Of a stretch of DNA of 64,000 nucleotides, positions 5,402 through 45,559 are shown piece after piece. Position 1 is the first letter of the stretch; each line of letters begins with the position of its first letter. Source of the DNA: Dehalococcoidia bacterium (GTDB taxonomy: Bacteria; Chloroflexota; Dehalococcoidia; UBA6926); contig OZ250138.1 of NCBI GenBank assembly GCA_965237465.1, positions 23,137-87,136 of the forward strand, read 5' to 3'. The position numbers and the translations under genes are program-made. The notes beneath the pieces were generated by a model that saw only the letters and a list, made by a program, of their open reading frames with translations, was not told the DNA's origin and searched no databases.

Positions 5402-5490
5402 TAGTGTTCTGTCCTTTCGACTGGAATTGCTATCCGTGACTCGCAGCGGCGCAATGCGGAGTTTTCGCCGCTATCTGGTTGATATATCAG

Positions 5491-8232: not shown

Positions 8233-8269
8233 TGCTCGACGGCCAAAACTAAGGTAGGTGACAGCTCCG

Positions 8270-9610: not shown

Positions 9611-9963
9611 CAGCTAACCGCTCTCAGAGTGCAGCGACTGTGGGACGAGAGCGGTAGGACCGGGGTTCTCGTCGGGCGTCGCAGACGGAGCGACGGTGGG
9701 GCTTCTTGACTGCTTCGGCGGGTCTCACCCTCTCCATGGGGTGATTGCGGCCATCAGGTCGTGACGCTTGGCCGCTCTTTGCCCAGCGGAACGGCCGCCG
9801 ATTGCTGGCGGCCGCGAAACGTGTCAATTCGCTGGCGTTTCCCCTAGGAAAGTCGCAAGCGTGGCCAACTACGTCGTCAGCGGCAACTGCCAACAGCCAT
9901 GCCTCGCTGCCGCCCGCTGCCGTGCTACTTCGGTCGGCGGCCACACAGCCGCCGGCACGCCCA

Positions 9964-10031
9964 TTGACGTACAATCTTGTATAGAGCCGTGTCGCATTCA
10001 GACTGGACCACGTTTCAAAATGTCGCAATCG
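9964..10031 (+). promoter_or_regulatory. Promoter/operator region of the XRE-TPR gene: TTGACG -35-like box plus TGTCGCA(T/A)TC direct repeats
   Basis: TTGACG sits at 9964. TGTCGCATTC at 9991 and TGTCGCAATC at 10021 (the second overlaps the start codon) are 30 bp apart. The same motif pair recurs at 7941 and 7969. Confidence 0.4.
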
Positions 10032-12014
10032 CGCACGTTTGGCGAACTCCTGTCGACATACATGGCTCGGACGGGCATTGGCGACGCCGAACTCGCGCGC
10101 CGGATCCCGGTCAATCGCCTTACGCTCGTGCGTTGGCGGGAAGGAGTTACAGGCCGGCCGCGCCACCGCAGCGACGTCCTGCGTTGCGCGGAGCTGCTCC
10201 GGCTAACGTCTGAGGAGCGGGATGAACTCCTCGCCGCCGCCGGTTTTCCGCCGGAAGCTGCGCCGGCTGCCGCTGTCCCGCCTGCCTCTCAGCCTTCCGA
10301 GCCTGCCCCGCCCGCTACCGCGCCGCTGCCTTCTCCCGTAACGCCACCCGCCGCGCCGCTTGATCCCATTGCGCCGGTGATAGCCGATGGCGCCGCCATG
10401 TTCGTGCGGCCCCGTCAAGCCGCCAGTCGCCTCAGGCGGATCGTTTTTGTCTCAGCGGCGGTAATGTTAGGTGTGTTGGTTGTCCTGGCGGCAATTGTCA
10501 TCACGACGCGAGACACGCTGACCTACCCCGTAGCCGGAGATGGCGAATCGCTGATCATCCTTGCGCCATTTGAGAACTACACGACAGGCGCGCAGGGATT
10601 CAACGTTGCAGGCCGTCTCCGGGAGGGGATCGATGCCGCTCTAGCTGAGGCCGAACTCCCAAGAACGCGCACCGCGGAATGGCCCACTTCGATCAAGACC
10701 GAGGAAGACGCCGGGCGCGCCGTGGAACGATCCTACGCGGCGTTCATCATCTGGGGCGAATACGATAGCGGGCGTGTTGTGGCCCGCTTTACGATGCCGG
10801 ATGGCCTGGGAACGGGCGGCGCGGATCAGATAGTAGACATTGCATCCACTCCCTCTGAACTGCCGGCGGTGATCAATGTCGGTCTCTCCGGTCAGGTGCA
10901 ACACTTCACCCTCGTCACGCTCGCTGTTTACTATCTGGAACAGAACGACTTTGACATGGCCAAGGCGGTGTTAATCAAGGCCCTGAGCCCTCTGCCATCC
11001 GATTCGGCAGAGCAGTCTCACGTTCTTTATTTGTTGGGGAACGCGTATCTGGGGGGAGCGCTACGCGACTACGATGAGGCGATCTGGCGATTCACGCAGG
11101 TGCTCTCAAACCAGCCTTGGTCCGTGGAAGCATTAAATGGCCGGGCCCTCGGATACCTGGGGCGAGAGCGGGACGGCGACGTCGTTCACGCTTTGATTGA
11201 CCTCGATCGCGCTGTTTCCATCGAGCCGGATCGCCCTGCCACGCACCTGAATCTGGCCGTGGCGTTCATGCAGCGGGGCGGGATTGGCGACACAGACAAC
11301 GCGCTCGGCGCATTGAATGATGCTCTATCGCTGGACGATGGCTATGCGGCGGCGTACGCAAGCCGCGCCGGAGTGTATCTGGCGAGGGACGAAAGCGGGG
11401 ACGTTGAACAGGCCTTTGAAGATGTGGCAATGGCGCTGGAGATTCGGGATGATCTTTCATCGGCTCTTCTGATTTACGGCCACGCCTACATCGCGCGCGA
11501 CAGGCAGGGAGACGTTGCGCGCGCTATTGGGCAATTCACACGCGCGGCGCAGCTTGAACCGGACGCGCCCGCGCCATACTACTATCGGGGTCTCGCTCAC
11601 TCCGCGCGCCAGGACATTCAGACTTCTGTATTGGATCTGTGGCACGCGCAGGGCCTTGACCCCCTGAAAGCGAACTACAGCCGCGCCCTGTGCCTACAGC
11701 TTGGCATTTTCGGACAGGCGGATGAAGCGACGACGCATTGCGATCTGGCGGTTGCGGCAGCTCCCGGAGAACTGACGTCGGACAGCCGCGGAATTGTGAA
11801 TGCGCGCCTAGGTCGATATAAGGAAGCAATCGCTGATTTTGAGGCCGTCCTGGACTGGGCGGACGCCTTCGGCAATCCGGTGTGCGGACAAGACTTTCGG
11901 GAAACACGCCTCAGGTGGATCGATGCGCTTGAGGCCGGCCGGAATCCACTGACGACACGGCTATTGCCAGAACTGCGGCCATTGCCGACGATTCCGGGCC
12001 GCCAACCGTGCTGA
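10020..12014 (+). CDS. Membrane-anchored transcriptional regulator: N-terminal XRE-type HTH, Pro-rich linker, one TM helix, extracytoplasmic TPR domain
   Basis: HTH: RTFGELLSTYMARTGIGDAELARRIPVNRLTLVRWREG. TM: IVFVSAAVMLGVLVVLAAIVITT. There are multiple TPR-like repeats. Start chosen at ATG 10020 (MSQSRTFGELL); the 9768 extension is Cys-rich and implausible. Confidence 0.7.
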   Translation: MSQSRTFGELLSTYMARTGIGDAELARRIPVNRLTLVRWREGVTGRPRHRSDVLRCAELLRLTSEERDELLAAAGFPPEAAPAAAVPPASQPSEPAPPATAPLPSPVTPPAAPLDPIAPVIADGAAMFVRPRQAASRLRRIVFVSAAVMLGVLVVLAAIVITTRDTLTYPVAGDGESLIILAPFENYTTGAQGFNVAGRLREGIDAALAEAELPRTRTAEWPTSIKTEEDAGRAVERSYAAFIIWGEYDSGRVVARFTMPDGLGTGGADQIVDIASTPSELPAVINVGLSGQVQHFTLVTLAVYYLEQNDFDMAKAVLIKALSPLPSDSAEQSHVLYLLGNAYLGGALRDYDEAIWRFTQVLSNQPWSVEALNGRALGYLGRERDGDVVHALIDLDRAVSIEPDRPATHLNLAVAFMQRGGIGDTDNALGALNDALSLDDGYAAAYASRAGVYLARDESGDVEQAFEDVAMALEIRDDLSSALLIYGHAYIARDRQGDVARAIGQFTRAAQLEPDAPAPYYYRGLAHSARQDIQTSVLDLWHAQGLDPLKANYSRALCLQLGIFGQADEATTHCDLAVAAAPGELTSDSRGIVNARLGRYKEAIADFEAVLDWADAFGNPVCGQDFRETRLRWIDALEAGRNPLTTRLLPELRPLPTIPGRQPC

Positions 12015-12146: not shown

Positions 12147-13256
12147 TCAAGTGTTGACGAAGCAAACGTCATGCTTGGGGACCTGGTGACCTTCGGCGCG
12201 TCCCATGAGCTGGCGTACCGCCTCGACAACCTGTGTCGTGCCGGCGGTGGACTGGCCGTTGGAAAGCTGGCCTCCGCCGGTGTTCACCGGGAAATCCCCT
12301 CCCCAGGTCGTGTCGTGCTCCTCGTAGAACGGTCCTGCTGTTCCCTTGGGGAAGAAGCCGGAGTCCTCCAGCGTGATCATCACTGTGATTGTGTAGCAGT
12401 CGTACATCTGCGCCATGTCCATGTCGCGCGGCCCAAGCCCGGCCATCTGGAAGGCGTTCTTGGCGGACACGGTGCACGGGGATGTCGTGATGCGTCCCAC
12501 CCAGTCGACGCCATGCTCCGCTCGCAGGTTGTGCTGCCCGGCGCCGAGCAAATAGACGGGTGGATTGCGCAACGCGCGCGCCCGCTCCGGCGTGGTGACG
12601 ATTGTCGCCGCCGCTCCCTGGGCCGGCATAACGCACTCAAGCAGCCTTAGCGGGTCAGCAACATAGCGGGAATTTAGGATGTCCTCTTCATTGGCGGGCT
12701 GGCCGTTGAAGAAGGCCTTCTCATTCCCCTGCGCGTTGAAACGCTGATCCGCCGCCACGCGCGCCCTCTGAAAGTCCGTCGTGCCGTACTCGAAACCGTG
12801 TCGACGCGCGATCTGCGCGTACCAGCCATTGGCCGCGACAACGGGGCCGAACGGCGTAACAAACTGTGGGTCGACGTGATCCGGCGCCGGCGCGTACATT
12901 CCGGGCGTCGACGAGACGGGCCCGGCGCCATTGATGCACAAGATGGTGTCCGCGTAACCGGCGTTGATGGCCGCCGCGGCCACAGAAACAAAGCTGGCGG
13001 CGTTCTCGTTCAGCGCAGTCGCAAAGTTCGGCTGAATGCCGACATACTCCGCAAAGTCATAGGCGAAGCCCAGGCTCGGCAGACCGAATGGCGGCTCTGC
13101 AATGATGCCGTTGATGTCTTCCTTGCGAATACCTGCGTCGGCTATCGCCCCGGCCGCTGTCTCCGCGTACATCCCCATGAAGTGGCGCCCCGCGTATGAC
13201 CGCCGATGCTGCAGCTCATGGAATCCGGCTATTGCAGCCTTTCCTCGTATCGACAT
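12147..13256 (-). CDS. Third thiolase-fold paralog lacking the Cys nucleophile (no adjacent DUF35)
   Basis: SCP2-thiolase-like N-terminus. The nucleophile position reads NENAASF, with Ala in place of Cys. The C-terminal region is NTGGGQLSNGQSTAG, with no His. Start at ATG 13256 (MSIRGKAAIAG) with GAGGAG RBS. Confidence 0.75.
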   Translation of the reverse strand: MSIRGKAAIAGFHELQHRRSYAGRHFMGMYAETAAGAIADAGIRKEDINGIIAEPPFGLPSLGFAYDFAEYVGIQPNFATALNENAASFVSVAAAAINAGYADTILCINGAGPVSSTPGMYAPAPDHVDPQFVTPFGPVVAANGWYAQIARRHGFEYGTTDFQRARVAADQRFNAQGNEKAFFNGQPANEEDILNSRYVADPLRLLECVMPAQGAAATIVTTPERARALRNPPVYLLGAGQHNLRAEHGVDWVGRITTSPCTVSAKNAFQMAGLGPRDMDMAQMYDCYTITVMITLEDSGFFPKGTAGPFYEEHDTTWGGDFPVNTGGGQLSNGQSTAGTTQVVEAVRQLMGRAEGHQVPKHDVCFVNT

Positions 13257-13433
13257 CTGCGTTCTCCTCAGGCGCGACGCCTCCGTCCTGGCGTCGCATC
13301 GTCCGGACATATCCGCTAATCCGTATGGTGCTGCAACATACCGCCGCTGTCAATGCGCCGACAGCTTCCCCCGCTTGTGGACACGCCCGCCCTCTACTAC
13401 AATCACCTGAGCATCACGAACACATGTGCTTCC

Positions 13434-20562: not shown

Positions 20563-21003
20563 ATGGCCGTGCTTGAGATTGCCCAGGAATTCATTGACGG
20601 GATGATTGCCCACTCGCGGCAGGAGGACCCAAATGAGTGCTGCGGTGTCTTGCTTAGCGAGGGCGGGCAGGTTGTGGCGATCCGGCGTGTGCCCAACGCC
20701 GAGGCCAGCCCGTTCCGATACAACATGGACACGCAGGAGTTCTTCAAGGTCTATAAGGAGTCCGAGGAGAAGGGGTGGGACATGTGGGGGTTTTACCACT
20801 CCCATACGCACTCTCCGGCGTATCCGTCCCAAACTGATCGAAATCTAGCTGCATGGCCCGGCTCCTACTACCTGATCGTCTCGCTGGAGGACAAGGAGGC
20901 GCCTGTCGTCCGCGCGTACTCCATCTCAGACGACAACGTTGAGGGGCATGAGATCCGCGCAGTCGACGGCCTGCGCGCATCCCAGGAGGCCGGCGCCCCA
21001 TGA
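20563..21003 (+). CDS. JAMM/MPN+ metalloprotease of the Mec+ type
   Basis: EC...HSHTHSPAYPSQTD JAMM motif. At 146 aa with overall similarity to mycobacterial Mec+ (Rv1334-like). GGAGAG RBS. Confidence 0.75.
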   Translation: MAVLEIAQEFIDGMIAHSRQEDPNECCGVLLSEGGQVVAIRRVPNAEASPFRYNMDTQEFFKVYKESEEKGWDMWGFYHSHTHSPAYPSQTDRNLAAWPGSYYLIVSLEDKEAPVVRAYSISDDNVEGHEIRAVDGLRASQEAGAP

Positions 21004-30113: not shown

Positions 30114-30668
30114 TTAGCGGGGAGTCGGAGGCGGCGCGCCAACCAGGACGGGACCCCGCCACGCGCCATCCCTGGAAATATTCTCGTCCTTCGTCAGGGC
30201 CACAAGTCCCGTGCGCATCAGCTCAAGGACATCGTACGGCTCCAGCAGGGCCAACAGGCTCTCCACTTGCTCCGTTGTGCCTGTCATCTCAATAATCACT
30301 GTCTTGGGCGAGACGCTGACAACCTCAGCGCCCTTGAAAAGGTCCAATATCTCGACGATCTGGCCGCGTGTCTCCCGTGTCGCGCGCACCTTGATCAAGG
30401 CCGTCTCGCGCGCCACATAGTCTTCGTCGGTGATGTCCATGACCTCTACGACGTCCACCACGTTGAACAGCTGAGACGTTACCTGGTAGAGCGCCGATTC
30501 CGGCACGTTGTCGACGACGATAGTCATGCGCGAAAAATCCGGTCGCTCTGATTGCCCCACTGCGAGGCTGGCGATGTTGAAATTGCGGCGCCGAAACATG
30601 CTCGCAACCCGATTCAGTACGCCCGGCCTGTCGTGGACCAAGGCGGAAATGACCCGTCGCATCGTCAT
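30114..30668 (-). CDS. ilvN: Acetolactate synthase small (regulatory) subunit
   Basis: ACT domain pattern. ATGA overlap with the ilvB stop. Confidence 0.85.
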   Translation of the reverse strand: MTMRRVISALVHDRPGVLNRVASMFRRRNFNIASLAVGQSERPDFSRMTIVVDNVPESALYQVTSQLFNVVDVVEVMDITDEDYVARETALIKVRATRETRGQIVEILDLFKGAEVVSVSPKTVIIEMTGTTEQVESLLALLEPYDVLELMRTGLVALTKDENISRDGAWRGPVLVGAPPPTPR

Positions 30669-32386
30669 CGCGTCATTGCCTCGGTCGGTTTCGGATTCAT
30701 CTCTGGATCCTCGACCATCTCCTTGACGGATTGACCCGCCGGAATCATCGGATAAACCAGCTCGTCAACCTCCACCATGAACTCAATGATCACCGGGCCA
30801 TCGTAGTCCTGCGCCTGCTTGATCGCGGCATCGACGTCCTTTATGTCATCAACGCGGATGCCGAGCATCCCGTACGCCTCGGCCAGCTTAACAAAGTCCG
30901 GCCCTGTTGTTTCAATCTGGCTATAGCGTTTGTCGTAGAACAGCGTTTGCCACTGGCGAACCATGCCGTGGTGCTGGTTGTTCATGATCGCGAACTTCAC
31001 CGGCGCTCGTTCATCCCGAATCGTGGCCAACTCTTGCAGCGTCATCTGGAAACCGGCATCGCCGCAGATCGACCACACCTGCTCCTCGGGCCTGCCCATC
31101 TGCGCGCCCAGCGCCGCGGGCACCTCATAGCCCATGGTGCCGAGGCCGCCCGACGTGATAAAGCTATTCGGCTGGTCTGTGACGTAGTGCTGTGCGGCCC
31201 ACATCTGATGCTGGCCGACGCCGGTTACGATGAATGCCTTGCCGTCCGTGGCCTCATGGATCCGCTTGATGACGTACTGCGTCGACGGCTTCCCGCCAAA
31301 ATCTCTGACGATCAGAGGGTGTTCCCGCCGCAGATCGTCCACGCGGGATAGCCACTCGGGTCGAGCGGTCTGCTCGACGAGGGGCAGCAGCGCATTGAGA
31401 GAGTTCTTTGCATCGCCAACCACCGGCGCATGGGCGAACAGGTTCTGATGGATGGCGGATCGGTCGATATTGAGGTGGATTATTTTCGCGCGAGGGGCGA
31501 AGTCCGCGACACGCCCGATGATCCGATCGTCAAATCGGGAGCCGATGTTTATCATCAGATCGCACTCATTGGCGACGAGGTTGGCGAAGGCGGAGCCGTG
31601 CATCCCCATCAGGCTCAGGTGCAGGTAATGCGTGCCGGGGAACGAGCCGATGCCGAGCAACGTTGGAATTACGGGTATCTGCGCCCGCTCCGCCAGTTCC
31701 TTAAGCTCAGCCTCGGCCCCTGCGATAAGCACACCGCGCCCCGCCAAAATGACCGGACGCTCCGCCGATCTGATGAGTTCCGCCGCGTAGCGCACCTGCT
31801 CCGCGTCGGGTTCTGTTATGGGTCTGAATCCTGGCAGGTCATCCACCGTCTTCGGATAGCCCGCGTATTCAGCAACCTCTTGCAGCACGTCGCGGGGAAG
31901 ATCCACCAGGACTGGGCCGGGCCGCGCCGACCGGGCGATGTGAAACGCTTCTTTCATGACGCGCGGAATGTCCGACGCGTTCATGACCAGATAGTTGTGC
32001 TTCGTAACCGGGATCGTAACGCCGGTCACGTCCGTCTCCTGGAACGCGTCCTTTCCGATGGCAGGCCGCGTCACCTGGCCGGTGATGGCCACAATGGGTG
32101 TTGAGTCCATGAATGCGGTGCCTAGGCCGACCGCGAGGTTGATGGCGCCGGGGCCTGATGTGGCGATGCAGACGCCCACGCGTCCTGTGGCGCGGGCGTA
32201 TCCGTCGGCGGCGTGCGCCGCGCCCTGTTCGTGCCGAGTCAGGACATGATGGATGGACGGGTACTTGAGGATGTGGTCATAGAAGGGCAGGATGGCGCCG
32301 CCGGGGACGCCAAAGACGAGGTCAACGCCCTCAGCCTCAAGCGCCTCGCACACCAATTCCCCACCGGCAAGCATCCTGCTCGACAT
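30665..32386 (-). CDS. ilvB: Acetolactate synthase large subunit
   Basis: TPP-enzyme motifs. Start at MSSRMLAGGELV (ATG 32386); the track's 5' extension is unlikely. Confidence 0.85.
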   Translation of the reverse strand: MSSRMLAGGELVCEALEAEGVDLVFGVPGGAILPFYDHILKYPSIHHVLTRHEQGAAHAADGYARATGRVGVCIATSGPGAINLAVGLGTAFMDSTPIVAITGQVTRPAIGKDAFQETDVTGVTIPVTKHNYLVMNASDIPRVMKEAFHIARSARPGPVLVDLPRDVLQEVAEYAGYPKTVDDLPGFRPITEPDAEQVRYAAELIRSAERPVILAGRGVLIAGAEAELKELAERAQIPVIPTLLGIGSFPGTHYLHLSLMGMHGSAFANLVANECDLMINIGSRFDDRIIGRVADFAPRAKIIHLNIDRSAIHQNLFAHAPVVGDAKNSLNALLPLVEQTARPEWLSRVDDLRREHPLIVRDFGGKPSTQYVIKRIHEATDGKAFIVTGVGQHQMWAAQHYVTDQPNSFITSGGLGTMGYEVPAALGAQMGRPEEQVWSICGDAGFQMTLQELATIRDERAPVKFAIMNNQHHGMVRQWQTLFYDKRYSQIETTGPDFVKLAEAYGMLGIRVDDIKDVDAAIKQAQDYDGPVIIEFMVEVDELVYPMIPAGQSVKEMVEDPEMNPKPTEAMTR

Positions 32387-32467
32387 ATCGCTCCTCACTG
32401 CTCGCTCAGCCGCTTCACATGCAGACCCGCACATCCTGGAGAGTCCGCCACGGGGGCCGAACTCCAC

Positions 32468-35099: not shown

Positions 35100-35704
35100 T
35101 GCCCTCAGCCTGGGAGCTCTCACTCTTTGAATCCCTGAATCAGCTGGCCGGCCGATCGGTCTTCCTGGACACGGTTATCCGACTCTTTGTGGGTGACTAC
35201 TTTGTACCGGTCGTGCTGTCTCTTACCCTGTTGGGGCTATGGTTCGGGGCGCAGGGGCCGGCTGATCGAGAACGACAACAACGGGCCGTGATTGCGGCGG
35301 TTATCGCCATGGGCATCGCCAACTTAGCGATTCTTGTTTTGAACGCCACGGAGGCCGTGATGCGTCCCCGGCCATTTGAGATCTTCGAAAACGCCGCGAG
35401 GACTGCGGACACGCTCTTCTACCAACCCCCGGATCCAACTTTCCCCAGCAACTCTATGGCGGTAACATTCGCCATCGCCGTCGCGGTCTTTACAGGTCAC
35501 CGCTTGCTGGGTTCCGTTGCGCTGGCGTTTGCAACCGGCATGGGGCTATCGCGCATTCTGGCGGGCGTCCATTTTCCCCTGGACGTCTTTGCCGGCGCCA
35601 TGCTTGGTGTTGGGGCCGCCCTCGTGGGCCTCGCATTACTGAGAATATTCGAGCCTGCCGCGGCCATGTTTCTCCAATGGGCGCGCCGCCTCTACCTCGC
35701 CTAA
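35096..35704 (+). CDS. PAP2-family phosphatase (undecaprenyl-diphosphatase-like)
   Basis: PAP2 motifs PSNS and SRILAGVHFPLDV. Confidence 0.7.
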   Translation: MMPSAWELSLFESLNQLAGRSVFLDTVIRLFVGDYFVPVVLSLTLLGLWFGAQGPADRERQQRAVIAAVIAMGIANLAILVLNATEAVMRPRPFEIFENAARTADTLFYQPPDPTFPSNSMAVTFAIAVAVFTGHRLLGSVALAFATGMGLSRILAGVHFPLDVFAGAMLGVGAALVGLALLRIFEPAAAMFLQWARRLYLA

Positions 35705-35762
35705 GACCGCGATAGCGATTTCTTCAGAAGGCGGCCGGTGGTTGCCTGCCGGCGCCCAGCGT

Positions 35763-36089
35763 CTACGGCTGGTTTCCCTGGCCGGCTGACGTGATCTTGT
35801 CGTCCCACCAGGGATCATCCTCTGGCTCCTCGTACGGAATCACATCCGCCGACCGGCACCACTCGCATCGGCCGCTTGAGAGGAGCTCTGCCTCGGGGGT
35901 CTCGTTGCCGCAGCGATTACAGAATCCAAGCGGCGCGGTGGATGTCACGCAGGCAGCGCACACCATCGGCGCGAGCGCGCCGGGGGACGCCTCAGTCGTG
36001 AAGGCCGGCGACCATCTCTCCGGCGCGGCATCCGACTCGGCTTCGTGTGCGTCGGGCCGTCGTCCGCATCGGCCGCAAATGAGGGTCAT
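35763..36089 (-). CDS. Cys-rich zinc-ribbon protein (4 x CxxC)
   Basis: CGRCGRR...CAAC...CNRCG...CEWC. ATG 36089 overlaps the upstream stop by ATGA, indicating translational coupling. Confidence 0.4.
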   Translation of the reverse strand: MTLICGRCGRRPDAHEAESDAAPERWSPAFTTEASPGALAPMVCAACVTSTAPLGFCNRCGNETPEAELLSSGRCEWCRSADVIPYEEPEDDPWWDDKITSAGQGNQP

Positions 36090-36946
36090 GAACTGCCGCG
36101 TTCGCTGCCGGTTGGTTGGCCCTGAACGTTGACGGCCTGTGATGACCACGCGATCTCCGGTCGATACGGCGCGTCTCGCCCCTGCGTAATGGCCAGAGGA
36201 TTGTCGCGCGTAAGCGCCCGCGCCCTTTCCTCCCCAATAAGCAAGGCGGCGGCCTCAAATCCTGAGCGCATGTTAGGCGCCCGATTCCCGGTGGCGCTGT
36301 GCGCATCCGTTGCCAGAACGTGCGCCGCCTCCCGACGCAACAGGTACATGCCCGTCTCCAGGGCTTGAGGTCCATAGTGTCCCAACAGGCTGCCGGTGTT
36401 GACCTGCACCAGCACGCCGCGCTCAATGATCCGCCTCGTCATATCGGGGTCATATTGAATGACGCTGTTCCGCTCAGGGTGCGCCAGCACCGGCCGATAT
36501 CCGGCCGCGATCAGCCCATCAAGCTCCTCATCGACGAATTCCGGCCAGGAGGTAAATGGCGGTTCAACCAGAATGTACCGCGTGCTATTGATCGTCGCCG
36601 CGTCCTGAGAGGCGACCTGCGAGCCAAGGGTCCTGTTTATGCGGACCTCTTGCCCGGTTGTGAGAGTCAGTTCGATGCCCTCCTCAAGGATCGCGCGCTG
36701 TAGGAGATCCACACGATGCCGTGATTCATCCAGGATGGATCGCATTGTTCGGGGAAAGTTGTGCGGCGTCGTGGCGATGATGGCCGCGCCGGCGCTTTCA
36801 GCGATGCGAGCCATTTCAAGCGCTTCCCGCCGATCACGCGCGCCGTCGTCAATGCCAGGTAATATGTGGCAATGGATATCGACGAATGGCGCCTCTAAGG
36901 GGGACCCATCCTGATGTTCGTGGTTGTTGTCAGGCGTCATCGCCAT
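36086..36946 (-). CDS. CpsB/YwqE-type PHP-domain protein-tyrosine phosphatase-like enzyme
   Basis: FVDIHCHILPGIDDGA motif and C-terminal HxH/D ligands. The start is ambiguous (ATG 36946, or GTG 36976 overlapping the PIG-L stop). Confidence 0.6.
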   Translation of the reverse strand: MAMTPDNNHEHQDGSPLEAPFVDIHCHILPGIDDGARDRREALEMARIAESAGAAIIATTPHNFPRTMRSILDESRHRVDLLQRAILEEGIELTLTTGQEVRINRTLGSQVASQDAATINSTRYILVEPPFTSWPEFVDEELDGLIAAGYRPVLAHPERNSVIQYDPDMTRRIIERGVLVQVNTGSLLGHYGPQALETGMYLLRREAAHVLATDAHSATGNRAPNMRSGFEAAALLIGEERARALTRDNPLAITQGRDAPYRPEIAWSSQAVNVQGQPTGSERGSS

Positions 36947-36963
36947 AGACAGCGATTCGCTCC

Positions 36964-37677
36964 CTAGCCCGGCCACCGAAAGCGGTGGACGCGGAATCCC
37001 TCGGCGTAGGCGTAGCCGGGCGACTTGCCCTGCTCCTCATGTCGCCCTCTGATGCGTTCAAGGATGCCCTCGGGATTGCGGATCTGGCTCTTGTGCTCGC
37101 TCAGCGCGGCGGCTTTCAGCTCAATAACGTCCGAGATGTCGACCCAGGTATCCGGGTCATCGCTCCAGGCCCACGCCTCGCTGACGATGTGCGGCTCAAA
37201 TCCTTGCGCAGCCAGTTGCGGGAAATGGTGAACGTCTCGCGCGTATGGGTACATGGCGTCAAAGGCAGCCTGACCGGCGTTCCGGTGATCGCGATGATTA
37301 TGGGCCTTGCGCATCGGATCAAATGTAAACACGACCTCCGGCTTGAATCGCCGAATCTCCCTGACGATATGCTCACGAAGCTCTCGCGTGTCCTCCAGCT
37401 CCCCGTCCGGGTAGCCCAGGAATGTCACGTCTTCGATGCCGAGGACGAGCGCCGCAGCCGTGGCCTCAGCCTCGCGGATCTTGACCAGATCCTCCGGTCT
37501 CATATTTGCGTCGGATGTGCCGGCGCGGCCGTCTGTGCAGATGACCAGCGCGCCAACCCAGCCCTCCTGAATCCACTTGCCGATTGTCCCCCCGCAGCCG
37601 AACTCCATATCGTCCGGGTGCGCGGAGATGGCCATCAGGCGCTTGGGCCTGTCTTCATCCTGCTGCGGTTCCGTCAT
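36964..37677 (-). CDS. PIG-L/LmbE-family N-acetylglucosaminyl deacetylase (paralog 1)
   Basis: AHPDDMEFGCGG and HxDH motifs. MshB/BshB-like. Confidence 0.75.
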   Translation of the reverse strand: MTEPQQDEDRPKRLMAISAHPDDMEFGCGGTIGKWIQEGWVGALVICTDGRAGTSDANMRPEDLVKIREAEATAAALVLGIEDVTFLGYPDGELEDTRELREHIVREIRRFKPEVVFTFDPMRKAHNHRDHRNAGQAAFDAMYPYARDVHHFPQLAAQGFEPHIVSEAWAWSDDPDTWVDISDVIELKAAALSEHKSQIRNPEGILERIRGRHEEQGKSPGYAYAEGFRVHRFRWPG

Positions 37678-38429
37678 TCGTTGTCGTCCCCCTGTTGTTG
37701 GCTATCGTCATTATCGTCGTCAAATCCCATGCGGCTGATTCCGTACCGACGAAAGCCCTCCGCATACTCCATGCCGTGCTCTCCGCCAATGCGGGCGGAC
37801 CATTGCCGGACCCAATCTCCGGCATCTGGGCCGAACTGGCTTATGTGCAGTTTCGTTGCTTCAATCTTGAGGTCGATGGTCTCCGTGATGTCAACAAACA
37901 CATCCGGATTCTCCGCGCCCCAGAAATAGACTTCAGCCGTCTTGTGGGGCAGCAGCCCCGCCGCGTGGTGCTCAGGGAAGTGGAGACGATCCCGCGCGAA
38001 CGGGAACACTGCGTCCATGGTGACCATTCCGATCGTGCGGTGATCACGATGGATATAGAAGGTTGTCCTAAAAGGATCAGTCGTCAAAACAATGTCCGGC
38101 CGGACGCGGCGAATGTGCTCAGTGATTTCACGCACCAGGTCCCGGTCATCCGACAGCTCCCCGTCTCCGTGGTCGAGGATGATGACCTCCTTGACGCCCA
38201 GGACTGCTGCGGCCGCTCGCTGCTCGCCGTCGCGCGTGCGGGCCAGATCCGCGTTGGTCAGGTCCGGGTCCTCTGTGCCCTTATCACCGTTTGTGGCGAT
38301 GACGTAGTACACCTCGACGCCATCCCGCACGAGTTGCGCGACTGTGCCGCCGCAGCCGATCTCGGCGTCATCCGGGTGGGGCGCAACGACGAGCACTCGC
38401 TCAAGAGGACCAAACTCGGGAATTGGCAC
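37674..38429 (-). CDS. PIG-L/LmbE-family deacetylase (paralog 2)
   Basis: APHPDDAEIGCGG and HRDHRT. 4-nt overlap with paralog 1. Confidence 0.75.
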   Translation of the reverse strand: MPIPEFGPLERVLVVAPHPDDAEIGCGGTVAQLVRDGVEVYYVIATNGDKGTEDPDLTNADLARTRDGEQRAAAAVLGVKEVIILDHGDGELSDDRDLVREITEHIRRVRPDIVLTTDPFRTTFYIHRDHRTIGMVTMDAVFPFARDRLHFPEHHAAGLLPHKTAEVYFWGAENPDVFVDITETIDLKIEATKLHISQFGPDAGDWVRQWSARIGGEHGMEYAEGFRRYGISRMGFDDDNDDSQQQGDDNE

Positions 38430-38441
38430 GCAAACCTCCGC

Positions 38442-39671
38442 TTATACTGCGCCCGGACCCATTCCGGCCGCCACGCGCTCTCTGGCAATCAGATCGCTAT
38501 AGATAGCAAAAATGGAATCGCCGATGGACTCCCACTCAAGATGCGCCACCGCCCCGGTTGCCCCGGCGGACAGACGCTCCCGCAGGGCCGTGTCACCCAG
38601 TAGCCCTGCTATTGCGTCAGCAAGCGCGCGAGCGTCACCCGGCGGGACCAGCCGACCCGATTCTCCGTCCCGGATGAAAGATGCAGGCCCGGGCACCTTG
38701 GATGCGACGACGGGCGTTCCGCACGCCATCGCCTCGGCGGTCGCGATGCTAAAGCTCTCATACCAGGACGGTACGACCAGCATATCGGCCGCTGCATAGT
38801 GCAAGGGCAGTTCGGCGTTTGGGACTGCTCCAAGAAATGAGATATGCTGCGCGACGCCGAGGCTCTGAGCCAGTGAGGCGAGCGCGGCAGGCGTCGTTGA
38901 GGCCGTGCCGCCGCCCACGATCCGCAGCCGGAGTCGGGGGCGATTCTCAATGAGACTCAACGCCTCAAGGAGCACATCCGCCCCCTTGATGAGATCCAGC
39001 CGGCCGACATAGAGCAGTGTTTCCTCATCTACGGTAATGCCAAGCCGATTCCGCGCCGCGCTCTTGTCGAGGCGATGAAACCGGCTCTTGTCTATGCCGA
39101 TGGGGGTCACGGAGATGCGCGAAGGATCTGCGCCAAGCAGTCGTGACAAGGCGTCGGCCTCATGCTGAGTCCACGCCACGATTCCATCCGCCCTCTGGGC
39201 AATGAGCCGCTCCGCGTCATGCCGAGCCCGCGGCTCTACGCCGCGTGGAAAGGCCTCCTGTTTGAGCGCCGCAACCGTGTGAAAAGTCGTTACGTGCGAC
39301 GCATTCCATCGTTTCGCCAGCTCCACGCCGACAAGCCCGGAAACCCAATAATGACTGTGGATGATGTCATAGCCTCCGCCGCTCGGACGCAGCGCGCCAA
39401 TCACTTCCGCAAAGTCCATCGTGTACTCATGGAGCGATTCCTTGGCCGCTGACGGGGGCGCTGCATTCACGTGCACAATGTCGATGCCCGGTTCATCAAT
39501 CGGGACGGCATGTCCACCGGAGTGCTCTCGCGTAAAGATGTCTACGCGCACTCCCCGCCGCGCAAGTTCGCGCGCCAATCCGAGTGCGTAAACGTTCATG
39601 CCGCCAACATCACCCTCCCCGGCTGTCCCAAGAGGGCAGGAATGCAGCGTCAAGAAAGCCGCGGACTTCAT
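38442..39671 (-). CDS. GT4 glycosyltransferase, MshA/BshA-like (GlcNAc transferase)
   Basis: LTLHSCPLGTAGEGDVGGMNVYALGLAREL resembles the MshA N-terminal signature. C-terminal E-x7-E GT4 motif. Confidence 0.75.
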   Translation of the reverse strand: MKSAAFLTLHSCPLGTAGEGDVGGMNVYALGLARELARRGVRVDIFTREHSGGHAVPIDEPGIDIVHVNAAPPSAAKESLHEYTMDFAEVIGALRPSGGGYDIIHSHYWVSGLVGVELAKRWNASHVTTFHTVAALKQEAFPRGVEPRARHDAERLIAQRADGIVAWTQHEADALSRLLGADPSRISVTPIGIDKSRFHRLDKSAARNRLGITVDEETLLYVGRLDLIKGADVLLEALSLIENRPRLRLRIVGGGTASTTPAALASLAQSLGVAQHISFLGAVPNAELPLHYAAADMLVVPSWYESFSIATAEAMACGTPVVASKVPGPASFIRDGESGRLVPPGDARALADAIAGLLGDTALRERLSAGATGAVAHLEWESIGDSIFAIYSDLIARERVAAGMGPGAV

Positions 39672-39895
39672 GGCGCCCCAGGCCTTTCTGGAAATAGGAC
39701 TATGTCGTTGCCGATGCTCGAATGGCAGCGCTGTGGCAGGTCAGCTGGGGTCTCCATTCGCGCCCCGAACAGAGAGCGGTCAGATGATCGCAAGCAGGAC
39801 TTGAGTGGAGCTTTGTATGCGGGCCTCGACATTTGCGCCTAGGCGGGATTGATTCCCATCAAAATTGCTATGGGATCCGACGTGTCGGCCCCGAC

Positions 39896-40891
39896 TCAGC
39901 CGTCACGGTCGAGGCGCCAACGGTAGAGAAGGCGATCACTGCCGCCGAGATCATATTTGTAGGCCTCGTTTCCCCTAAGAAAGTCGTACTCCCTCAGGCC
40001 CTGCTCAATGGCGGCGCGTACACCGTAGGCTTTGAGCAACAACCCGACGGAGAGGCGCGCGTACTCCGGATCGTACCCGCTGTTGTAGAGTAGCAGGCGC
40101 TGATCATCAACAAAGCTCATGGTTGCGGACACGGGCTTTCCCCCTAAGTCCAGAAAAGCAAGCCTCAATGAATCCGCCGCCGCCATGTTGTGCGTCAAGG
40201 TGTTAAGGAAGTCGCGACGTTCCGGCGTCAGGAATTCGGATTTCGCCTCGCTGCTCATGCCCATGAGGGAGACGAATTCTTCCAGCGCCGCTGGCAGCTC
40301 ATCCTGCTGAGCGTCAATGACGCGGTATTCAGCTTCTCCGCTCGCCTCAAGTCGGCGCAGCTTCCGGCGCAGCTCATGGCGATCCTTCTTTGATAGTCCC
40401 TGCACGTGATCGTCCCATGTATCCGGCAAGACCACGTATGGCGAAACATCCCAGACGGACCGCTCCGCCCGCCAGCCGTGTCGCTCAGCGTGCGTTTCCA
40501 AAATCTGCGTAGACGGGGAATCGTCCCGTATACCCGTCAGCTCTATGGAGGACCAGCCGTCCTCGGCCCCGTACTCCAGAACGGCATCCCAGACAACTTC
40601 CTCCTCGCCGGGATGCGACAGTATGTCCTGATAGTCGGTGACGTTGTAGTCAAGGCCAAAGGTCACGGCGGCGTTCTCACAGTGCAAGGGGGCGATGCCT
40701 CTCAGCGAGCCATCGGAATCCCGGCGCACGGTGAGTAAGGTGTGATGCTCCGGAGAGCCGCAACAGTTCATGGCCCACGCCATCTGCCACGGCAGCGAAA
40801 GAAATATGGACTGTGTTGTCGCTGCGTGGAACACTTCTGACCACTCATCTGACAAAGCGGCCAGTGATTCCCATCGAACGGAAACGGTCAC
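39896..40891 (-). CDS. PF13480 (BioF2-like / FemAB-type) acyltransferase-fold protein
   Basis: The C-terminal YDFLRGNEAYKYDLG motif is typical of Acetyltransf_6 proteins. Confidence 0.6.
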   Translation of the reverse strand: MTVSVRWESLAALSDEWSEVFHAATTQSIFLSLPWQMAWAMNCCGSPEHHTLLTVRRDSDGSLRGIAPLHCENAAVTFGLDYNVTDYQDILSHPGEEEVVWDAVLEYGAEDGWSSIELTGIRDDSPSTQILETHAERHGWRAERSVWDVSPYVVLPDTWDDHVQGLSKKDRHELRRKLRRLEASGEAEYRVIDAQQDELPAALEEFVSLMGMSSEAKSEFLTPERRDFLNTLTHNMAAADSLRLAFLDLGGKPVSATMSFVDDQRLLLYNSGYDPEYARLSVGLLLKAYGVRAAIEQGLREYDFLRGNEAYKYDLGGSDRLLYRWRLDRDG

Positions 40892-41457
40892 GAGCGGCCG
40901 CCTGGTGTTGTCAGCGTGAGGAACTCGCTTTGAGCTCTTTCGTTGTCACGAAACACGCCCCGCCAGGCTGTCGTGATCACCTTGCTGCCGGGCGCCCTGA
41001 CGCCGCGAATAGTCATGCAAAGGTGTTCCGCCTCCACCCGCACCGCCGCGCCCTGGGGCTGGAGACACTCCATTAGGAGATCGGCCGCCTGATTCGTGAA
41101 GCGCTCTTGCATCTGTGGTCGCCGCGCAAGGCATTCGATCGCGCGAGCCACCTTGCTAATCCCCGCAACGCGACCCGACGGCAGATAGCCGATGTTGACG
41201 GCGCCAAAAAACGGGAGCAAGTGGTGCTCGCAGATCGACGCGAACGGTATGTCCTTGATGGTCACGAGGTCCCGGACGCCTTCCTCATAGGAGACAGTTA
41301 GGAGCGCCCGAGGGTCTGCATCAATGCCCGAGAAGAGTTCTGCGTACATGGCCGCGACGCGCTCAGGCGTCTTCGTGATGCCGTCGCGCCGCGGGTCCTC
41401 GCCAATGGCATTGAGGATTTCCTCAACGGCGCGTGCGATACGCTCCTGGTCAATCAT
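40888..41457 (-). CDS. folE: GTP cyclohydrolase I
   Basis: ICEHHLLPF and overall FolE consensus. Confidence 0.85.
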   Translation of the reverse strand: MIDQERIARAVEEILNAIGEDPRRDGITKTPERVAAMYAELFSGIDADPRALLTVSYEEGVRDLVTIKDIPFASICEHHLLPFFGAVNIGYLPSGRVAGISKVARAIECLARRPQMQERFTNQAADLLMECLQPQGAAVRVEAEHLCMTIRGVRAPGSKVITTAWRGVFRDNERAQSEFLTLTTPGGRS

Positions 41458-41516
41458 TCAGCAATCGACGCTATTCGTCATGAGCCTTGAGTACAGTGTA
41501 GCGCAGGCCAGGCTGA

Positions 41517-42572
41517 TCACCGCCACCCAAGAAACTTGCTTACCGCGGTGATATCCGCGGGGACTTCGTCGAACTCCATGTCTCCCCCGGACGTCACGCT
41601 GTCCGGGTCCTTGAGTCCGTTGCCAGTTATGATGCAGACGACTTGTCTATCGGCCATCTCCGGGTGGCTTGCTGTGTACTTTGTCAGGCCGGCTACGGAT
41701 GCTGCGGATGCCGGCTCCCCGAAGATGCCTTCCGACCCTGCGAGTACCGAGTACGCATCCATAATCTGCGTGTCCGTCACGCTATCAATGAGGCCCCCTG
41801 ATTCGTCGCGAGCCGCTATCGCCGCAGTCCAGCTTGCCGGCTTGCCGATGCGTATTGCAGTTGCCAGAGTGTCCGGCTCTTCTATCGGGTAGCCGAGGAC
41901 AAGGGGAGCCGCTCCGGCCGCTTGGAACCCCATCATTCGCGGGAGTTTCCCGCTGCGCTCCAAACGGTTGTATTCCTGAAAGCCCTTCCAATAGGCGGTA
42001 ATGTTGCCCGCATTGCCAACCGGAATAAATACATCATCAGGCGCGTCGCCGAGTTCATCAATGATCTCAAACGCGGCTGTCTTTTGGCCCTCAAGTCGAT
42101 GCGCGTTTACGGAGTTCACCAACCGCACGCGACCAGATTCCGCCATGGCGCGCACAATGTGCAGCGCGTCGTCAAAGGATCCGGCGATGGATACAACGCG
42201 CGCCCCGTACATCACGGCTTGCGCCAGCTTGCCCGCTGCGATCAGCCCGCTCGGGACCATTACGATGCTCTCAATACCGCTTTGCGCTCCGTACGCTGCG
42301 GCAGAGGCGCTGGTGTTGCCTGTTGATGCGCAAATGATGGCAGTGCACTCGTCTTCAAGCGCCTTGGCTACGGCCACAACCATGCCGCGATCCTTGAATG
42401 AGCCGGTTGGATTCATGCCTTCAAGCTTGAAATAGAGCTCGCCCACGCCCAATTCGGCCTCAATGCGGCGAGACCGGATCAGTGGCGTGCTGCCCTCGCC
42501 GAGTGTGATGCGAGGGGTGGATTCCGTCAGCGGGAGTAGGTCGCCATACCGTTCAAGCACGCCCACGCTCAT
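41517..42572 (-). CDS. thrC: Threonine synthase
   Basis: PLP lysine motif PTGSFKDRG and full-length similarity. Confidence 0.85.
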   Translation of the reverse strand: MSVGVLERYGDLLPLTESTPRITLGEGSTPLIRSRRIEAELGVGELYFKLEGMNPTGSFKDRGMVVAVAKALEDECTAIICASTGNTSASAAAYGAQSGIESIVMVPSGLIAAGKLAQAVMYGARVVSIAGSFDDALHIVRAMAESGRVRLVNSVNAHRLEGQKTAAFEIIDELGDAPDDVFIPVGNAGNITAYWKGFQEYNRLERSGKLPRMMGFQAAGAAPLVLGYPIEEPDTLATAIRIGKPASWTAAIAARDESGGLIDSVTDTQIMDAYSVLAGSEGIFGEPASAASVAGLTKYTASHPEMADRQVVCIITGNGLKDPDSVTSGGDMEFDEVPADITAVSKFLGWR

Positions 42573-42695
42573 GACAGTCGCTCCATGGGAGCGAGGCCGG
42601 CGCAGGCGCGCCGGCGCATGCCGCCGTTCATGTCAGGCCCCCTGCCTGATTGGACTGAAGCGTCGCGCGCATGATCCATCGCGGGTTTGCAGGCA

Positions 42696-44018
42696 TCACT
42701 CTTCCACCCGGATGATGCTGCCGATTTCCTTGACGACATCAAGGGCAGTCAACTCTTGAGATGCCGCGCGGATGGCGGCCTCCCGCGCGCGGTGCGTCAT
42801 GATCACGAGTTCCGCTGAGCGGGCAGTCTCGTTGGTCTCCTGCTGTATCACGGAGGCGATGCTGATTGATGCCTGTCCGAGGACCTGGGCAATTGCGGCG
42901 AGGACGCCGGGGCGATCCGTGACAGTCATGCGGACGTAGTAACGAAACTCAAGCTCATCGATCGGCCGGACTTGTCTGAAAGGTCCTGTGATTGTGTGCT
43001 GATCATGGCGCCCATGATCGACCAGGCCCCGCGCCACGTCTATCACGTCGCCAAGCACGGCGCTCGCGGTTGGGCCTGCCCCGGCGCCGCGCCCATAAAG
43101 CAGCAGTTCGCCCGCCGATTCACTGCCGAATTGCACGGCGTTGTACACGCCGTCGACCTTTGCCAGGAGCGCGTTGGCGTCGATAAAGGCGGGGTGAACG
43201 CGCACGTCAATCGAGCCGTCGTCAATTTCCTTGCCGATGGCCAGCAACTTGATTCGGTAGCCTAGATCGTCGGCGTATCGGAAATCGCGCGCGGTGAGGC
43301 CGCCGATGCCATCGTAGTAAATAGAGTCAATTGAAACCGGAGTCCGAAACGCCAGGCTCGCGAGCACTGCCAACTTGTAGGCGGCGTCGACGCCATCAAT
43401 GTCGTTGCTGGGGTCGGCCTCCGCGTACCCGCGAGACTGGGCGTCAGCCAACGCCTCCGAAAACGCGATTCCCTCGGTGGCCATCTGCGAGAGGATGTAG
43501 TTGGTGGTCCCATTAATGATTGCCCGCAACACGCTGATTCGCGTGCCCGCAAGTCCGCGCTGCAAGCTGGATATGACCGGTATGGCTCCGCCGACGGCCG
43601 CCTCAAATTCCAGGGCGACATTCTTGTTCCGCGCCATGGCCATCAGCCCCGCGCCATGCTTTGCCATCACCTCTTTGTTGCCGGTGACTACAGACTTGCC
43701 CGCCCCAATGGACGTTCGGATGGCGGACAGCGCAAAGTCCTCCCCGCCCATCAGCTCGATGACGATATCGACCCTCGGATCCTCGAGGATCTGACTCAAA
43801 TCTGTCGTGATGAGCGAGGGGTCCACAGCTTGGGATCGCTTCTTGGAGGCATCGCGCACAAGGATGCCGAGGAGCTGCGGAGGCAGGCCGATTGCTTCTG
43901 TCAGCGAGGCCCTTTCTCCCGATAGGGCCTCCGCGACGTTCGTGCCGACGACTCCCATTCCAAGGAGTCCTACGCCGATATATCCCCGGTCCTGGGGGGC
44001 TTGCGCCCCGTTAGCCAC
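42696..44018 (-). CDS. hom: Homoserine dehydrogenase with C-terminal ACT domain
   Basis: VGLLGMGVVG Rossmann motif and ACT domain. GTG 44018 is preferred; the track start at 44066 is TTG. Confidence 0.8.
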   Translation of the reverse strand: MANGAQAPQDRGYIGVGLLGMGVVGTNVAEALSGERASLTEAIGLPPQLLGILVRDASKKRSQAVDPSLITTDLSQILEDPRVDIVIELMGGEDFALSAIRTSIGAGKSVVTGNKEVMAKHGAGLMAMARNKNVALEFEAAVGGAIPVISSLQRGLAGTRISVLRAIINGTTNYILSQMATEGIAFSEALADAQSRGYAEADPSNDIDGVDAAYKLAVLASLAFRTPVSIDSIYYDGIGGLTARDFRYADDLGYRIKLLAIGKEIDDGSIDVRVHPAFIDANALLAKVDGVYNAVQFGSESAGELLLYGRGAGAGPTASAVLGDVIDVARGLVDHGRHDQHTITGPFRQVRPIDELEFRYYVRMTVTDRPGVLAAIAQVLGQASISIASVIQQETNETARSAELVIMTHRAREAAIRAASQELTALDVVKEIGSIIRVEE

Positions 44019-45175: not shown

Positions 45176-45559
45176 TCAGCGGGCGGGCGGCAGATCGTGC
45201 AGGGAATCCGTCGTAAATGGGATCATGCCCGCCTGACGGGCGCGCTTGATCTCCTTCGCCAGGGCCCTCTGGTGGCGCGAACAGGTGCTGGTTCTGCGGC
45301 GCGGCTCTATGCGCGCCCGCTCGGAGATATAGCGTCGCAGAGTTTCCGGCGACTTGAAGTCCATCTGCGCATCCTTGTTGGCGCAGAAGAAGCAGACGCG
45401 ACGCCTCGGGTAGAAGCGACGTCCTCCGCCTCCTCCATCCCGGCGTCCTCCAGATCCCGGAGGACGGCCACCGCCCGCGGGTCTATCTCCTGGCGGGCGA
45501 GGGCCGAATTGCGGCCGCCCGCCGCCGCCCGGCGGCTGCGTCGTGCTTTCTGACGTCAT
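45176..45559 (-). CDS. rpsR: Ribosomal protein bS18 with a roughly 45-aa Gly/Arg/Pro-rich N-terminal extension
   Basis: YPRRRVCFFCANKDAQMDFKSPETLRRYISERARIEPRRRTSTCSRHQRALAKEIKRAR. Confidence 0.85.
   Translation of the reverse strand: MTSESTTQPPGGGGRPQFGPRPPGDRPAGGGRPPGSGGRRDGGGGGRRFYPRRRVCFFCANKDAQMDFKSPETLRRYISERARIEPRRRTSTCSRHQRALAKEIKRARQAGMIPFTTDSLHDLPPAR

Follow-up and report, generated by a model that had tools for sequence, protein, structure and literature searches.

Mycothiol is made in Actinobacteria by MshA, MshA2, MshB, MshC and MshD, through transfer of N-acetylglucosamine (GlcNAc) to a phosphorylated acceptor, dephosphorylation, de-N-acetylation and re-acylation of the bared amine. 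The ligase of this pathway, MshC, is an ATP-dependent paralogue of cysteinyl-tRNA synthetase (CysRS), and a 2026 paper still describes MshA2 no further than as 'a phosphatase'. The bacillithiol pathway (BshA, BshB1/BshB2 and BshC) likewise pairs a GlcNAc transferase of glycosyltransferase family 4 (GT4) with a PIG-L deacetylase, but BshA takes unphosphorylated L-malate as its acceptor, and thus that pathway needs no phosphatase. The pairs NeoD/NeoL and BtrM/BtrD of 2-deoxystreptamine aminoglycoside biosynthesis show the same succession, a PIG-L deacetylase acting after an MshA-like GlcNAc transferase. Related genes occur in a 64,000-nucleotide stretch (the window) of the genome of a Dehalococcoidia bacterium (Chloroflexota; contig OZ250138.1 of assembly GCA_965237465.1, positions 23,137 to 87,136), where six minus-strand genes between positions 35763 and 40891 encode a PF13480 transferase, an MshA-like GT4 enzyme, two PIG-L deacetylases (PIG-L1 and PIG-L2), a PHP phosphoesterase and a small Zn-ribbon protein. 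On balance we lean towards reading this cluster as a mycothiol-type pathway to an N-substituted glucosaminyl-inositol. No prior account of a mycothiol-like pathway in Chloroflexota or of a partnership between PF13480 proteins and MshA was found in literature searches, which also covered the identity of MshA2.

In the proposed pathway, the GT4 enzyme would move GlcNAc from UDP-GlcNAc onto a phosphorylated polyol, most likely 1L-myo-inositol-1-phosphate, and the PHP phosphoesterase would strip the phosphate from the resulting GlcNAc-inositol phosphate (GlcNAc-Ins-P), which is the MshA2 step. PIG-L1 would then take off the N-acetyl group and bare the glucosamine amine, on which the PF13480 protein, a Fem-like tandem-GNAT enzyme, would build a new amide with an aminoacyl-tRNA as the most likely donor, doing the job that falls to MshC in Actinobacteria. 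PIG-L2, a recent paralogue, may be a conjugate amidase, as are Mca and BshB2, and in some relatives an MshD-like N-acetyltransferase would finally cap the amino acid. Each of these steps is proposed from family assignments, residue conservation, gene linkage and fold similarity. More tentatively, the PF13480 protein could add cysteine from Cys-tRNA(Cys) to glucosaminyl-inositol, giving a mycothiol-like thiol in Chloroflexota, some Deltaproteobacteria and basal Actinomycetota by a route ancestral or alternative to the CysRS-derived MshC, with the PHP protein as a dedicated GlcNAc-Ins-P phosphatase. If true, mycothiol-type redox or conjugate chemistry would reach beyond Actinobacteria into an abundant, mostly uncultured phylum, there would be a hint as to how the tRNA-independent MshC could have replaced a CysRS-plus-Fem-type system, and the GlcNAc-Ins-P phosphatase step would gain a defined class of candidate enzymes. 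The genes of the cluster and those directly upstream are as follows.

39896-40891, minus strand: PF13480 tandem-GNAT Fem-like transferase, 331 residues (PF13480, 120.7 bits)
39672-39895, minus strand: non-coding spacer of 224 nucleotides between the PF13480 and GT4 genes, from the reading of the junctions
38442-39671, minus strand: MshA-like GT4 glycosyltransferase, 409 residues (PF00534/PF13579/PF13439; TIGR03449)
37674-38429, minus strand: PIG-L1 deacetylase, 251 residues (PF02585, 116 bits)
36964-37677, minus strand: PIG-L2 deacetylase, 237 residues (PF02585, 124 bits)
36086-36946, minus strand: CpsB/YwqE-type PHP phosphoesterase, 286 residues from ATG 36946, with an alternative start at GTG 36976 (PF19567, 181 bits)
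35763-36089, minus strand: Cys-rich Zn-ribbon protein, 108 residues from ATG 36089 (no family match)
40888-41457, minus strand: folE, GTP cyclohydrolase I (PF01227, 232 bits, and NF006826, 249 bits, both over cutoff)
41517-42572, minus strand: thrC, upstream of folE (TIGR00260, 296 bits)

The GT4 enzyme matches the MshA model TIGR03449 at 312 bits over profile positions 3-404 of 406, by far its best family, with EpsE second among NCBIfam models (130 bits), BshA at 105 bits and the N-terminal domain of sucrose-phosphate synthase (SPS) at 78 bits. Its best solved relative is CgMshA (3c48/3c4q; 225 bits), and then the SPS of T. elongatus, TeSPS (6kih; 190 bits); its identity to canonical actinobacterial MshAs, at 37-44%, roughly equals that to other homologues from Chloroflexota. 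The N-terminal motif GGMNVY is kept, and the MshA-like N-terminal signature quoted in an earlier note on this DNA, CPLGTAGEGDVGGMNVY, is indeed read in the sequence. In a rough neighbour-joining tree, calculated without bootstrap or other support values, homologues encoded next to a PF13480 gene form a grade adjoining the canonical MshA clade, and two sequences from basal Actinomycetota/Acidimicrobiia metagenome-assembled genomes (MAGs) are themselves PF13480-linked. The kinship with MshA that the note had claimed, as opposed to one with exopolysaccharide or lipid GT4s, therefore stands on the scores (312 against at most 130 bits), on CgMshA as nearest structure and on the tree; membership of the canonical clade does not.

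Conservation of the acceptor site points to a phosphorylated acceptor. Residues K77, Y108, H131-T132 and R150 of the window enzyme align with K78, Y110, H133-T134 and R154 of CgMshA, and K77 and R150 align as well with R105 and R178 of TeSPS, which hold the acceptor phosphate according to the TeSPS paper; these data, with the alignment, give K78 and R154 of CgMshA their phosphate-site role. Residues were compared across 33 canonical actinobacterial MshAs, 32 PF13480-linked homologues and 7 unlinked outgroup sequences. Seven positions (M24, H109, Y110, W111, T134, K139 and E150 in CgMshA numbering) show conservation of 94% or more in the canonical and the PF13480-linked sets alike, and are occupied in the outgroup by Q, N, F, F, A, R and F, respectively; R154 is invariant in all three sets. 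Among the 32 PF13480-linked homologues, Y110 and T134, which we take to be acceptor/phosphate-site residues of CgMshA, are invariant together with R154, and K78 is 72% conserved. The acceptor is phosphorylated for CgMshA and TeSPS alike, and the next enzyme in either pathway is a phosphatase. The resemblance to SPS, as the second-closest solved GT4, extends to this order of glycosylation and dephosphorylation, but not to the SPS-specific model, with its 78 bits, or to an SPS-phosphatase-type HAD enzyme, of which there is none in the window. The window enzyme thus probably works like MshA on a phospho-acceptor, most plausibly an inositol phosphate.

No MshC is encoded in the cluster, where the conserved partner of the glycosyltransferase is instead the PF13480 protein, which is more conserved than the GT4 enzyme in the same relatives (72-77% against 51-56% identity). 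When its AlphaFold (AF2) model, with a confidence score (pLDDT) of 96.3, is compared with the PDB using Foldseek, the top 10 matches are all aminoacyl-tRNA-dependent transferases (E ~1e-12 to 1e-11, template-modelling (TM) scores 0.53-0.70), namely Sba18, Sbb17, FemX, MprF and other aminoacyl-phosphatidylglycerol synthases; acetyl-CoA-dependent tandem GNATs rank lower (TM 0.4-0.53). The PDB entries of Sba18 and Sbb17, at TM 0.61-0.70, describe aminoacyl-tRNA-dependent peptide synthases in complex with streptothrisamine, an amino-sugar compound. Orf11 aminoacylates an amino-sugar amine, the type of reaction proposed here, as presumably do Sba18 and Sbb17 to judge from these PDB complexes. With FemX/FemAB, MprF and Orf11/Sba18-type transferases the window protein shares the tandem-GNAT fold and a basic helix opening the second domain, which is invariant and strongly basic in its family (residues 166-183, LSKKDRHELRRKLRRLE, at the start of GNAT domain 2). 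According to a review, it has been proposed that FemX contacts the acceptor stem of the tRNA with a positively charged helix of its GNAT domain 2, and by analogy the invariant helix fits RNA binding. An invariant C-terminal motif, E309/Y311/K312/Y313 (E-x-Y-K-Y), recalls in its K312 the catalytic Lys of FemX (K305) and of DhpH-C, and some orthologues pass the FemAB_like model (44.8 bits against a cutoff of 27). On the strength of the model, the protein is probably a Fem-type, aminoacyl-tRNA-dependent transferase.

Gene linkage ties this transferase to the glycosyltransferase across phyla. The closest relatives are Dehalococcoidia MAGs with contigs of 1.7-2.0 Mb, and a GT4 profile run against a single genome of each species yielded 80 loci (numbered here with the prefix L). 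A PF13480 gene lies directly upstream of the GT4 gene on the same strand, at distances from an overlap to ~510 nucleotides, in 27 of the 80, which cover Dehalococcoidia, Anaerolineae, Chloroflexia, Limnocylindria and Caldilineaceae as well as four MAGs from Deltaproteobacteria and two from basal Actinomycetota. GT4 is followed by a PIG-L gene in 13 loci, within ~1.2 kb in 12 of them and at 4.2 kb in L007, and PF13480 is present in 12 of these 13. The clustering sets the locus apart from the canonical actinobacterial mshA loci that were fetched, which have no PF13480, PIG-L or PHP gene within 10 kb. PIG-L and PHP genes stay adjacent in Dehalococcoidia down to 43% PHP identity (L086, L087), and stay together even when 3-4 kb away from GT4 (L005, L007); a PHP homologue at 39% identity stands in an unrelated context. 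When neighbours were clustered over 31 PF13480-GT4 loci for a gene that could supply the acceptor, only PIG-L, PHP, MshD-like and DUF502 genes and the hom-thrC-folE synteny recurred.

Four relatives, all Dehalococcoidia, also carry a full-length MshD-like tandem GNAT gene, which adjoins GT4 in L005 (13147-14061, minus strand), L007 and L090 (12139-13047, minus strand) and lies between GT4 and PIG-L in L010 (10710-11606, minus strand). TIGR03448 (MshD) is the best family for the L005, L010 and L090 proteins at 125, 79 and 125 bits, respectively, under its cutoff of 163, and the L007 copy is 89% identical to that of L005. A DUF502 membrane protein is usually encoded beside these genes, as is a Metallophos phosphoesterase in L005 and L007. 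To judge from their sequences, the relatives together thus offer a locus candidate for each step of mycothiol synthesis except the cysteine ligase, with PF13480 as the sole conserved enzyme left to assign. Because an MshD-like acetyltransferase in the locus implies a free alpha-amine to cap, an aminoacyl rather than an acyl group is favoured. That the amino acid could be cysteine is suggested by the same genes, by the MshB/Mca-like pair of PIG-L proteins and by a CysRS anticodon-binding domain encoded upstream in two Deltaproteobacteria MAGs.

This domain occurs in a ~417-residue protein whose gene stands directly upstream of PF13480-GT4-PIG-L in L029 (4858-6111, plus strand) and L049 (7643-8905, plus strand). 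Its N-terminal domain is cyanophycinase/S51-like, and the C-terminal one is of the CysRS anticodon-binding type, with 29 bits against PF23493, over the cutoff, and E ~5e-6 against the C-terminus of TIGR00435. The domain may hint at an involvement of tRNA(Cys).

The two deacetylases match PF02585 at scores far over the Pfam cutoff of 28.2 bits, and their metal motifs read APHPDD...HRDH in PIG-L1 and SAHPDD...HRDH in PIG-L2, as expected from the description of both as MshB/BshB-type enzymes. Among NCBIfam models they score best against BshB1 and BshB2, with 105 and 110 bits for BshB1 (TIGR04001), below its cutoff of 182.5. PIG-L1 is 54-59% identical to the sole PIG-L of single-copy loci, PIG-L2 is 43-45% identical to it, and the two are ~41% identical to each other; on these identities PIG-L1 is the ancestral copy and PIG-L2 a lineage-specific duplicate. 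PIG-L1 is proposed to be the GlcNAc-Ins de-N-acetylase, with PIG-L2 as either a second deacetylase or an Mca/Bca-like conjugate amidase. Although the pair of paralogues resembles BshB1 and BshB2/Bca, and the combination of a GT4 GlcNAc transferase with a PIG-L protein is common to both systems, the cluster differs from bacillithiol genes in its GT4, in the BshB cutoffs missed by its deacetylases and in having no BshC. BshA was rejected as an identity for the GT4 enzyme on its 105 bits, as against 312 for MshA. The aminoglycoside pairs differ in their setting, the window having no 2-deoxy-scyllo-inosose synthase or other antibiotic-cluster genes.

The PHP phosphoesterase belongs to PF19567 (CpsB_CapC; 181 bits, cutoff 27), aligns with YwqE (3qy6) over ~200 residues at 138 bits, and keeps all of the metal motifs (HCH, TPH, E, AHPER and DAH); it reaches 89 bits against the Cps4B equivalog model NF041488, whose cutoff is 400. 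Unlike the CpsB/YwqE tyrosine phosphatases, it has no partner bacterial tyrosine kinase (BY-kinase) or capsule operon in the window scans or related loci, its linkage being instead to PIG-L deacetylase and MshA-like glycosyltransferase genes. Its placing at the sugar-phosphate step rests on that linkage, on the phospho-acceptor-type site of the GT4 enzyme and on the absence of a BY-kinase nearby, and it is proposed, by analogy, to be the GlcNAc-Ins-P phosphatase; its substrate would be a small sugar phosphate, as for the histidinol phosphatases of the PHP family. Mycothiol synthesis, with MshA2 named only by its activity, would thereby gain a specific phosphatase candidate. By tblastn, the Zn-ribbon gene that follows is confined to close relatives (43-97% identity in L001-L004 and L006), and its product belongs to no Pfam or NCBIfam family.

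All six genes are present as open reading frames on the minus strand at the coordinates first assigned to them, and the family calls made for them hold (PF13480, both PIG-L proteins, PHP, the three GT4 domains, and a Zn-ribbon protein without a family). The earlier note had also described them as a six-gene translationally coupled operon, a description that fails at one junction: a non-coding stretch of 224 nucleotides separates the PF13480 stop at 39896 from the GT4 start at 39671, and thus there is no translational coupling across all six genes. Instead, the GTG start of PF13480 overlaps the stop of the upstream folE (GTGA), so that its coupling is to folE, thrC and hom, the last of which also lies upstream of folE, rather than to GT4. 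The arrangement is therefore hom-thrC-folE-PF13480, spacer, then GT4-PIGL-PIGL-PHP-ZnR. Within the second part, the junctions were mostly as described, with a gap of 12 nucleotides between the GT4 stop and the GTG of PIG-L1 (preceded by GGAGG), a 4-nucleotide ATGA overlap between PIG-L1 and PIG-L2, and an ATGA overlap of PHP with the Zn-ribbon gene at ATG 36089. The claimed overlap of PIG-L2 and PHP holds only if PHP starts at GTG 36976 (13 nucleotides), the alternative ATG 36946 leaving a gap of 17 nucleotides. ATG 36946 is the more likely start, given an AGGGAG Shine-Dalgarno-like site 12 nucleotides upstream and the gene calls in relatives (286-289 residues), which match it.

The spacer is probably a 5' untranslated region or an internal promoter region. 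Its ~100 GT4-proximal nucleotides (39672-39780) show partial conservation in a relative with a GT4 of only 77% identity, and may be a 5' untranslated region or promoter element; over the relatives as a whole the spacer ranges from an overlap to the insertion of a methyltransferase gene. A consensus scan found no promoter-like or terminator-like site inside the 224 nucleotides. Over 35500-42800 the scan gave one promoter-like and four terminator-like matches (in thrC, folE, GT4 and PIG-L2), no more than in shuffled sequences, and an Rfam search of the cluster region including the spacer returned no family. The neighbouring thrC was also considered as a cysteine synthase, an identity rejected on its 296 bits against TIGR00260 (cutoff 167), which make it a true threonine synthase.

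Several observations weigh against a mycothiol-type pathway. At 312 bits the GT4 enzyme misses the MshA equivalog cutoff of 462.5, and its group lies outside the canonical actinobacterial clade that contains CgMshA in the neighbour-joining tree; it is not to be classed as an MshA equivalog. Nor are the deacetylases MshB orthologues, being far from MshB (TIGR03445; 40 and 42 bits, cutoff 224) and closer to BshB and chitobiose deacetylases; the best solved relatives of PIG-L2 are the archaeal diacetylchitobiose deacetylases (120 bits), with BshB1 at 71 and MshB at 27. The MshB half of the MshB/BshB-type label is thus not supported by their scores. The PHP protein is closely homologous to YwqE, a protein-tyrosine phosphatase, and is linked to the cluster only within Dehalococcoidia. 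The PF13480 protein has only marginal sequence similarity to Fem enzymes (FemAB Pfam model, E 0.016, 14.5 bits, cutoff 24), belongs by sequence to PF13480 and not to PF02388, DUF2156 or PF04339, and has a family that includes the acyl-CoA user BspF, itself a weak match to it; its Foldseek matches, with TM 0.6-0.7 at 10-16% identity, leave the donor unfixed. Searches for ino1, cysS/mshC, mshD and BY-kinase genes, made with Pfam and NCBIfam on ~45 of the ~60 open reading frames of the window, found none of them, which agrees with the earlier statement that the window holds no mshC/bshC-type ligase and leaves it without the MshD-like gene of some relatives. An Ino1 query for tblastn, validated by a 78% match in an Arthrobacter locus, placed no ino1 within 10 kb of GT4 in any Chloroflexota locus, nor in the window; Ino1 genes have been reported in SAR202 genomes and in Dehalococcoides.

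These points leave room for other readings, among which we see a minor but real chance that the first three steps are the same and the PF13480 protein is an acyl-CoA-dependent N-acyltransferase, giving an N-acyl-glucosaminyl-inositol that is not a thiol, for example a compatible solute or the head group of a glycolipid or lipoglycan, with MshC/BshC absent or encoded elsewhere. The annotation of PF13480 as a GNAT acetyltransferase domain, the crotonyl transferase BspF as the protein's sole NCBIfam similarity, the acetyl-CoA tandem GNATs among its fold matches and the treatment of inositol as an osmolyte of SAR202 in the literature would all suit such an enzyme, as would the convergent PAP2 lipid-phosphatase gene that adjoins the cluster, although that adjacency is limited to the closest relatives. 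The fold search nevertheless ranks aminoacyl-tRNA-dependent enzymes above acyl-CoA GNATs, RNA binding would suit the invariant basic helix, and the free alpha-amine implied by the MshD-like acetyltransferase in four relatives calls for an aminoacyl group. It is rather improbable that the acceptor is some other phosphorylated alcohol, be it a sugar phosphate, glycerate phosphate or the side chain of a FolE-derived pterin, the last of which would give a glucosaminyl pterin glycoside of the solfapterin/tepidopterin type. GlcNAc and glucosamine glycosides of pterins do occur in Chlorobium and Sulfolobus; folE overlaps PF13480 at its stop, many Dehalococcoidia loci have the order folE-PF13480-GT4, and folE opens the same-strand array of L018 and L036. 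SPS, the second-best solved relative of the GT4 enzyme, moreover uses fructose-6-phosphate. However, the PF13480-GT4 pair stands without folE in L005, L007, L009 and all of the Anaerolineae-type and proteobacterial loci, and the order hom-thrC-folE looks like housekeeping synteny; thrC-(folE)-PF13480-GT4 is kept even where hom has moved away (L005, L090), through either synteny inertia or a functional link, for example to a pterin or threonine. The SPS N-terminal domain model scores 78 bits against 312 for MshA, and MshA-specific residues outside the phosphate site (GGMNVY, HSHYW, K139 and E150) are kept.

The resemblance of the PHP protein to the tyrosine phosphatases YwqE and CpsB, the 130 bits of EpsE as second-best GT4 family and the name 'CelD/BcsL family acetyltransferase' that some sources give to PF13480 homologues would together accommodate an envelope or exopolysaccharide locus, in which the GT4 and PIG-L enzymes make and partly deacetylate a GlcNAc polymer, PF13480 is a CelD-like modifier and PHP a CpsB-type regulator of a BY-kinase. 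We regard this as very improbable, since neither the window nor the related loci examined hold a BY-kinase, Wzx/Wzy, a polyprenyl-phosphate transferase, an export gene or other polysaccharide machinery, and the GT4 acceptor site is of the kind that serves soluble phospho-acceptors in MshA and SPS. Around the cluster lie genes of amino-acid biosynthesis and other housekeeping genes (glyA, rpsF-ssb-rpsR, a PpiC-type rotamase gene, hom, thrC, folE, ilvE, ilvBNC-leuA and his), and in relatives too the cluster lies outside polysaccharide loci, flanked by hom-thrC-folE, ilvE, ilvBNC-leuA and his. The reading as a polysaccharide locus was accordingly rejected. Hardest of all to credit is mere synteny with no common pathway, PF13480 being a partner of folE and thrC, and neither the PHP nor the Zn-ribbon gene being related. 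It would account for the spacer between PF13480 and GT4 and for the phylogenetic narrowness of the PHP and Zn-ribbon genes, but the PF13480-GT4 pair survives across phyla while all other neighbours change, and PIG-L and PHP remain together even 3-4 kb away from GT4. The mycothiol-type pathway, close to what the earlier note had sketched as a non-canonical route to a GlcNAc-based glycoside or low-molecular-weight thiol, is thus largely borne out by the conserved linkage, the MshD-like genes and the FemX-like fold, with the thiol as such still a proposal.

Elsewhere in the window, the start of the ribosomal protein S18 gene (45176-45559, minus strand) is uncertain: the longest reading frame, of 127 residues, has a long Gly/Pro/Arg-rich N-terminal extension, and S18 is called at 62 residues in a close relative. 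A Prok-JAB/desampylase-like protein (20563-21003, plus strand; NF041370, 97 bits, under cutoff) may be part of a ubiquitin-like sulfur-carrier system of the CysO/SAMP type. Thiolase-like (Thiolase_C_1) and zf-ChsH2 OB-fold/zinc-ribbon genes are duplicated in tandem on the minus strand (2064-3874 and 4112-5922, ~2.05 kb), the copies being 95-98% identical in two 300-nucleotide stretches compared, and a third thiolase-like gene lies at 12147-13310. A 450-residue leucine-rich-repeat protein (8258-9610, plus strand), of a kind uncommon in small Chloroflexota genomes, is encoded next to a 748-residue tetratricopeptide-repeat protein (9768-12014, plus strand). Finally, a T-box leader (RF00230, 32518-32762, minus strand; 100.5 bits, over the gathering threshold) precedes an acetolactate-synthase-like gene for a thiamine-pyrophosphate enzyme (30665-32467) in an ilvBN-type operon.

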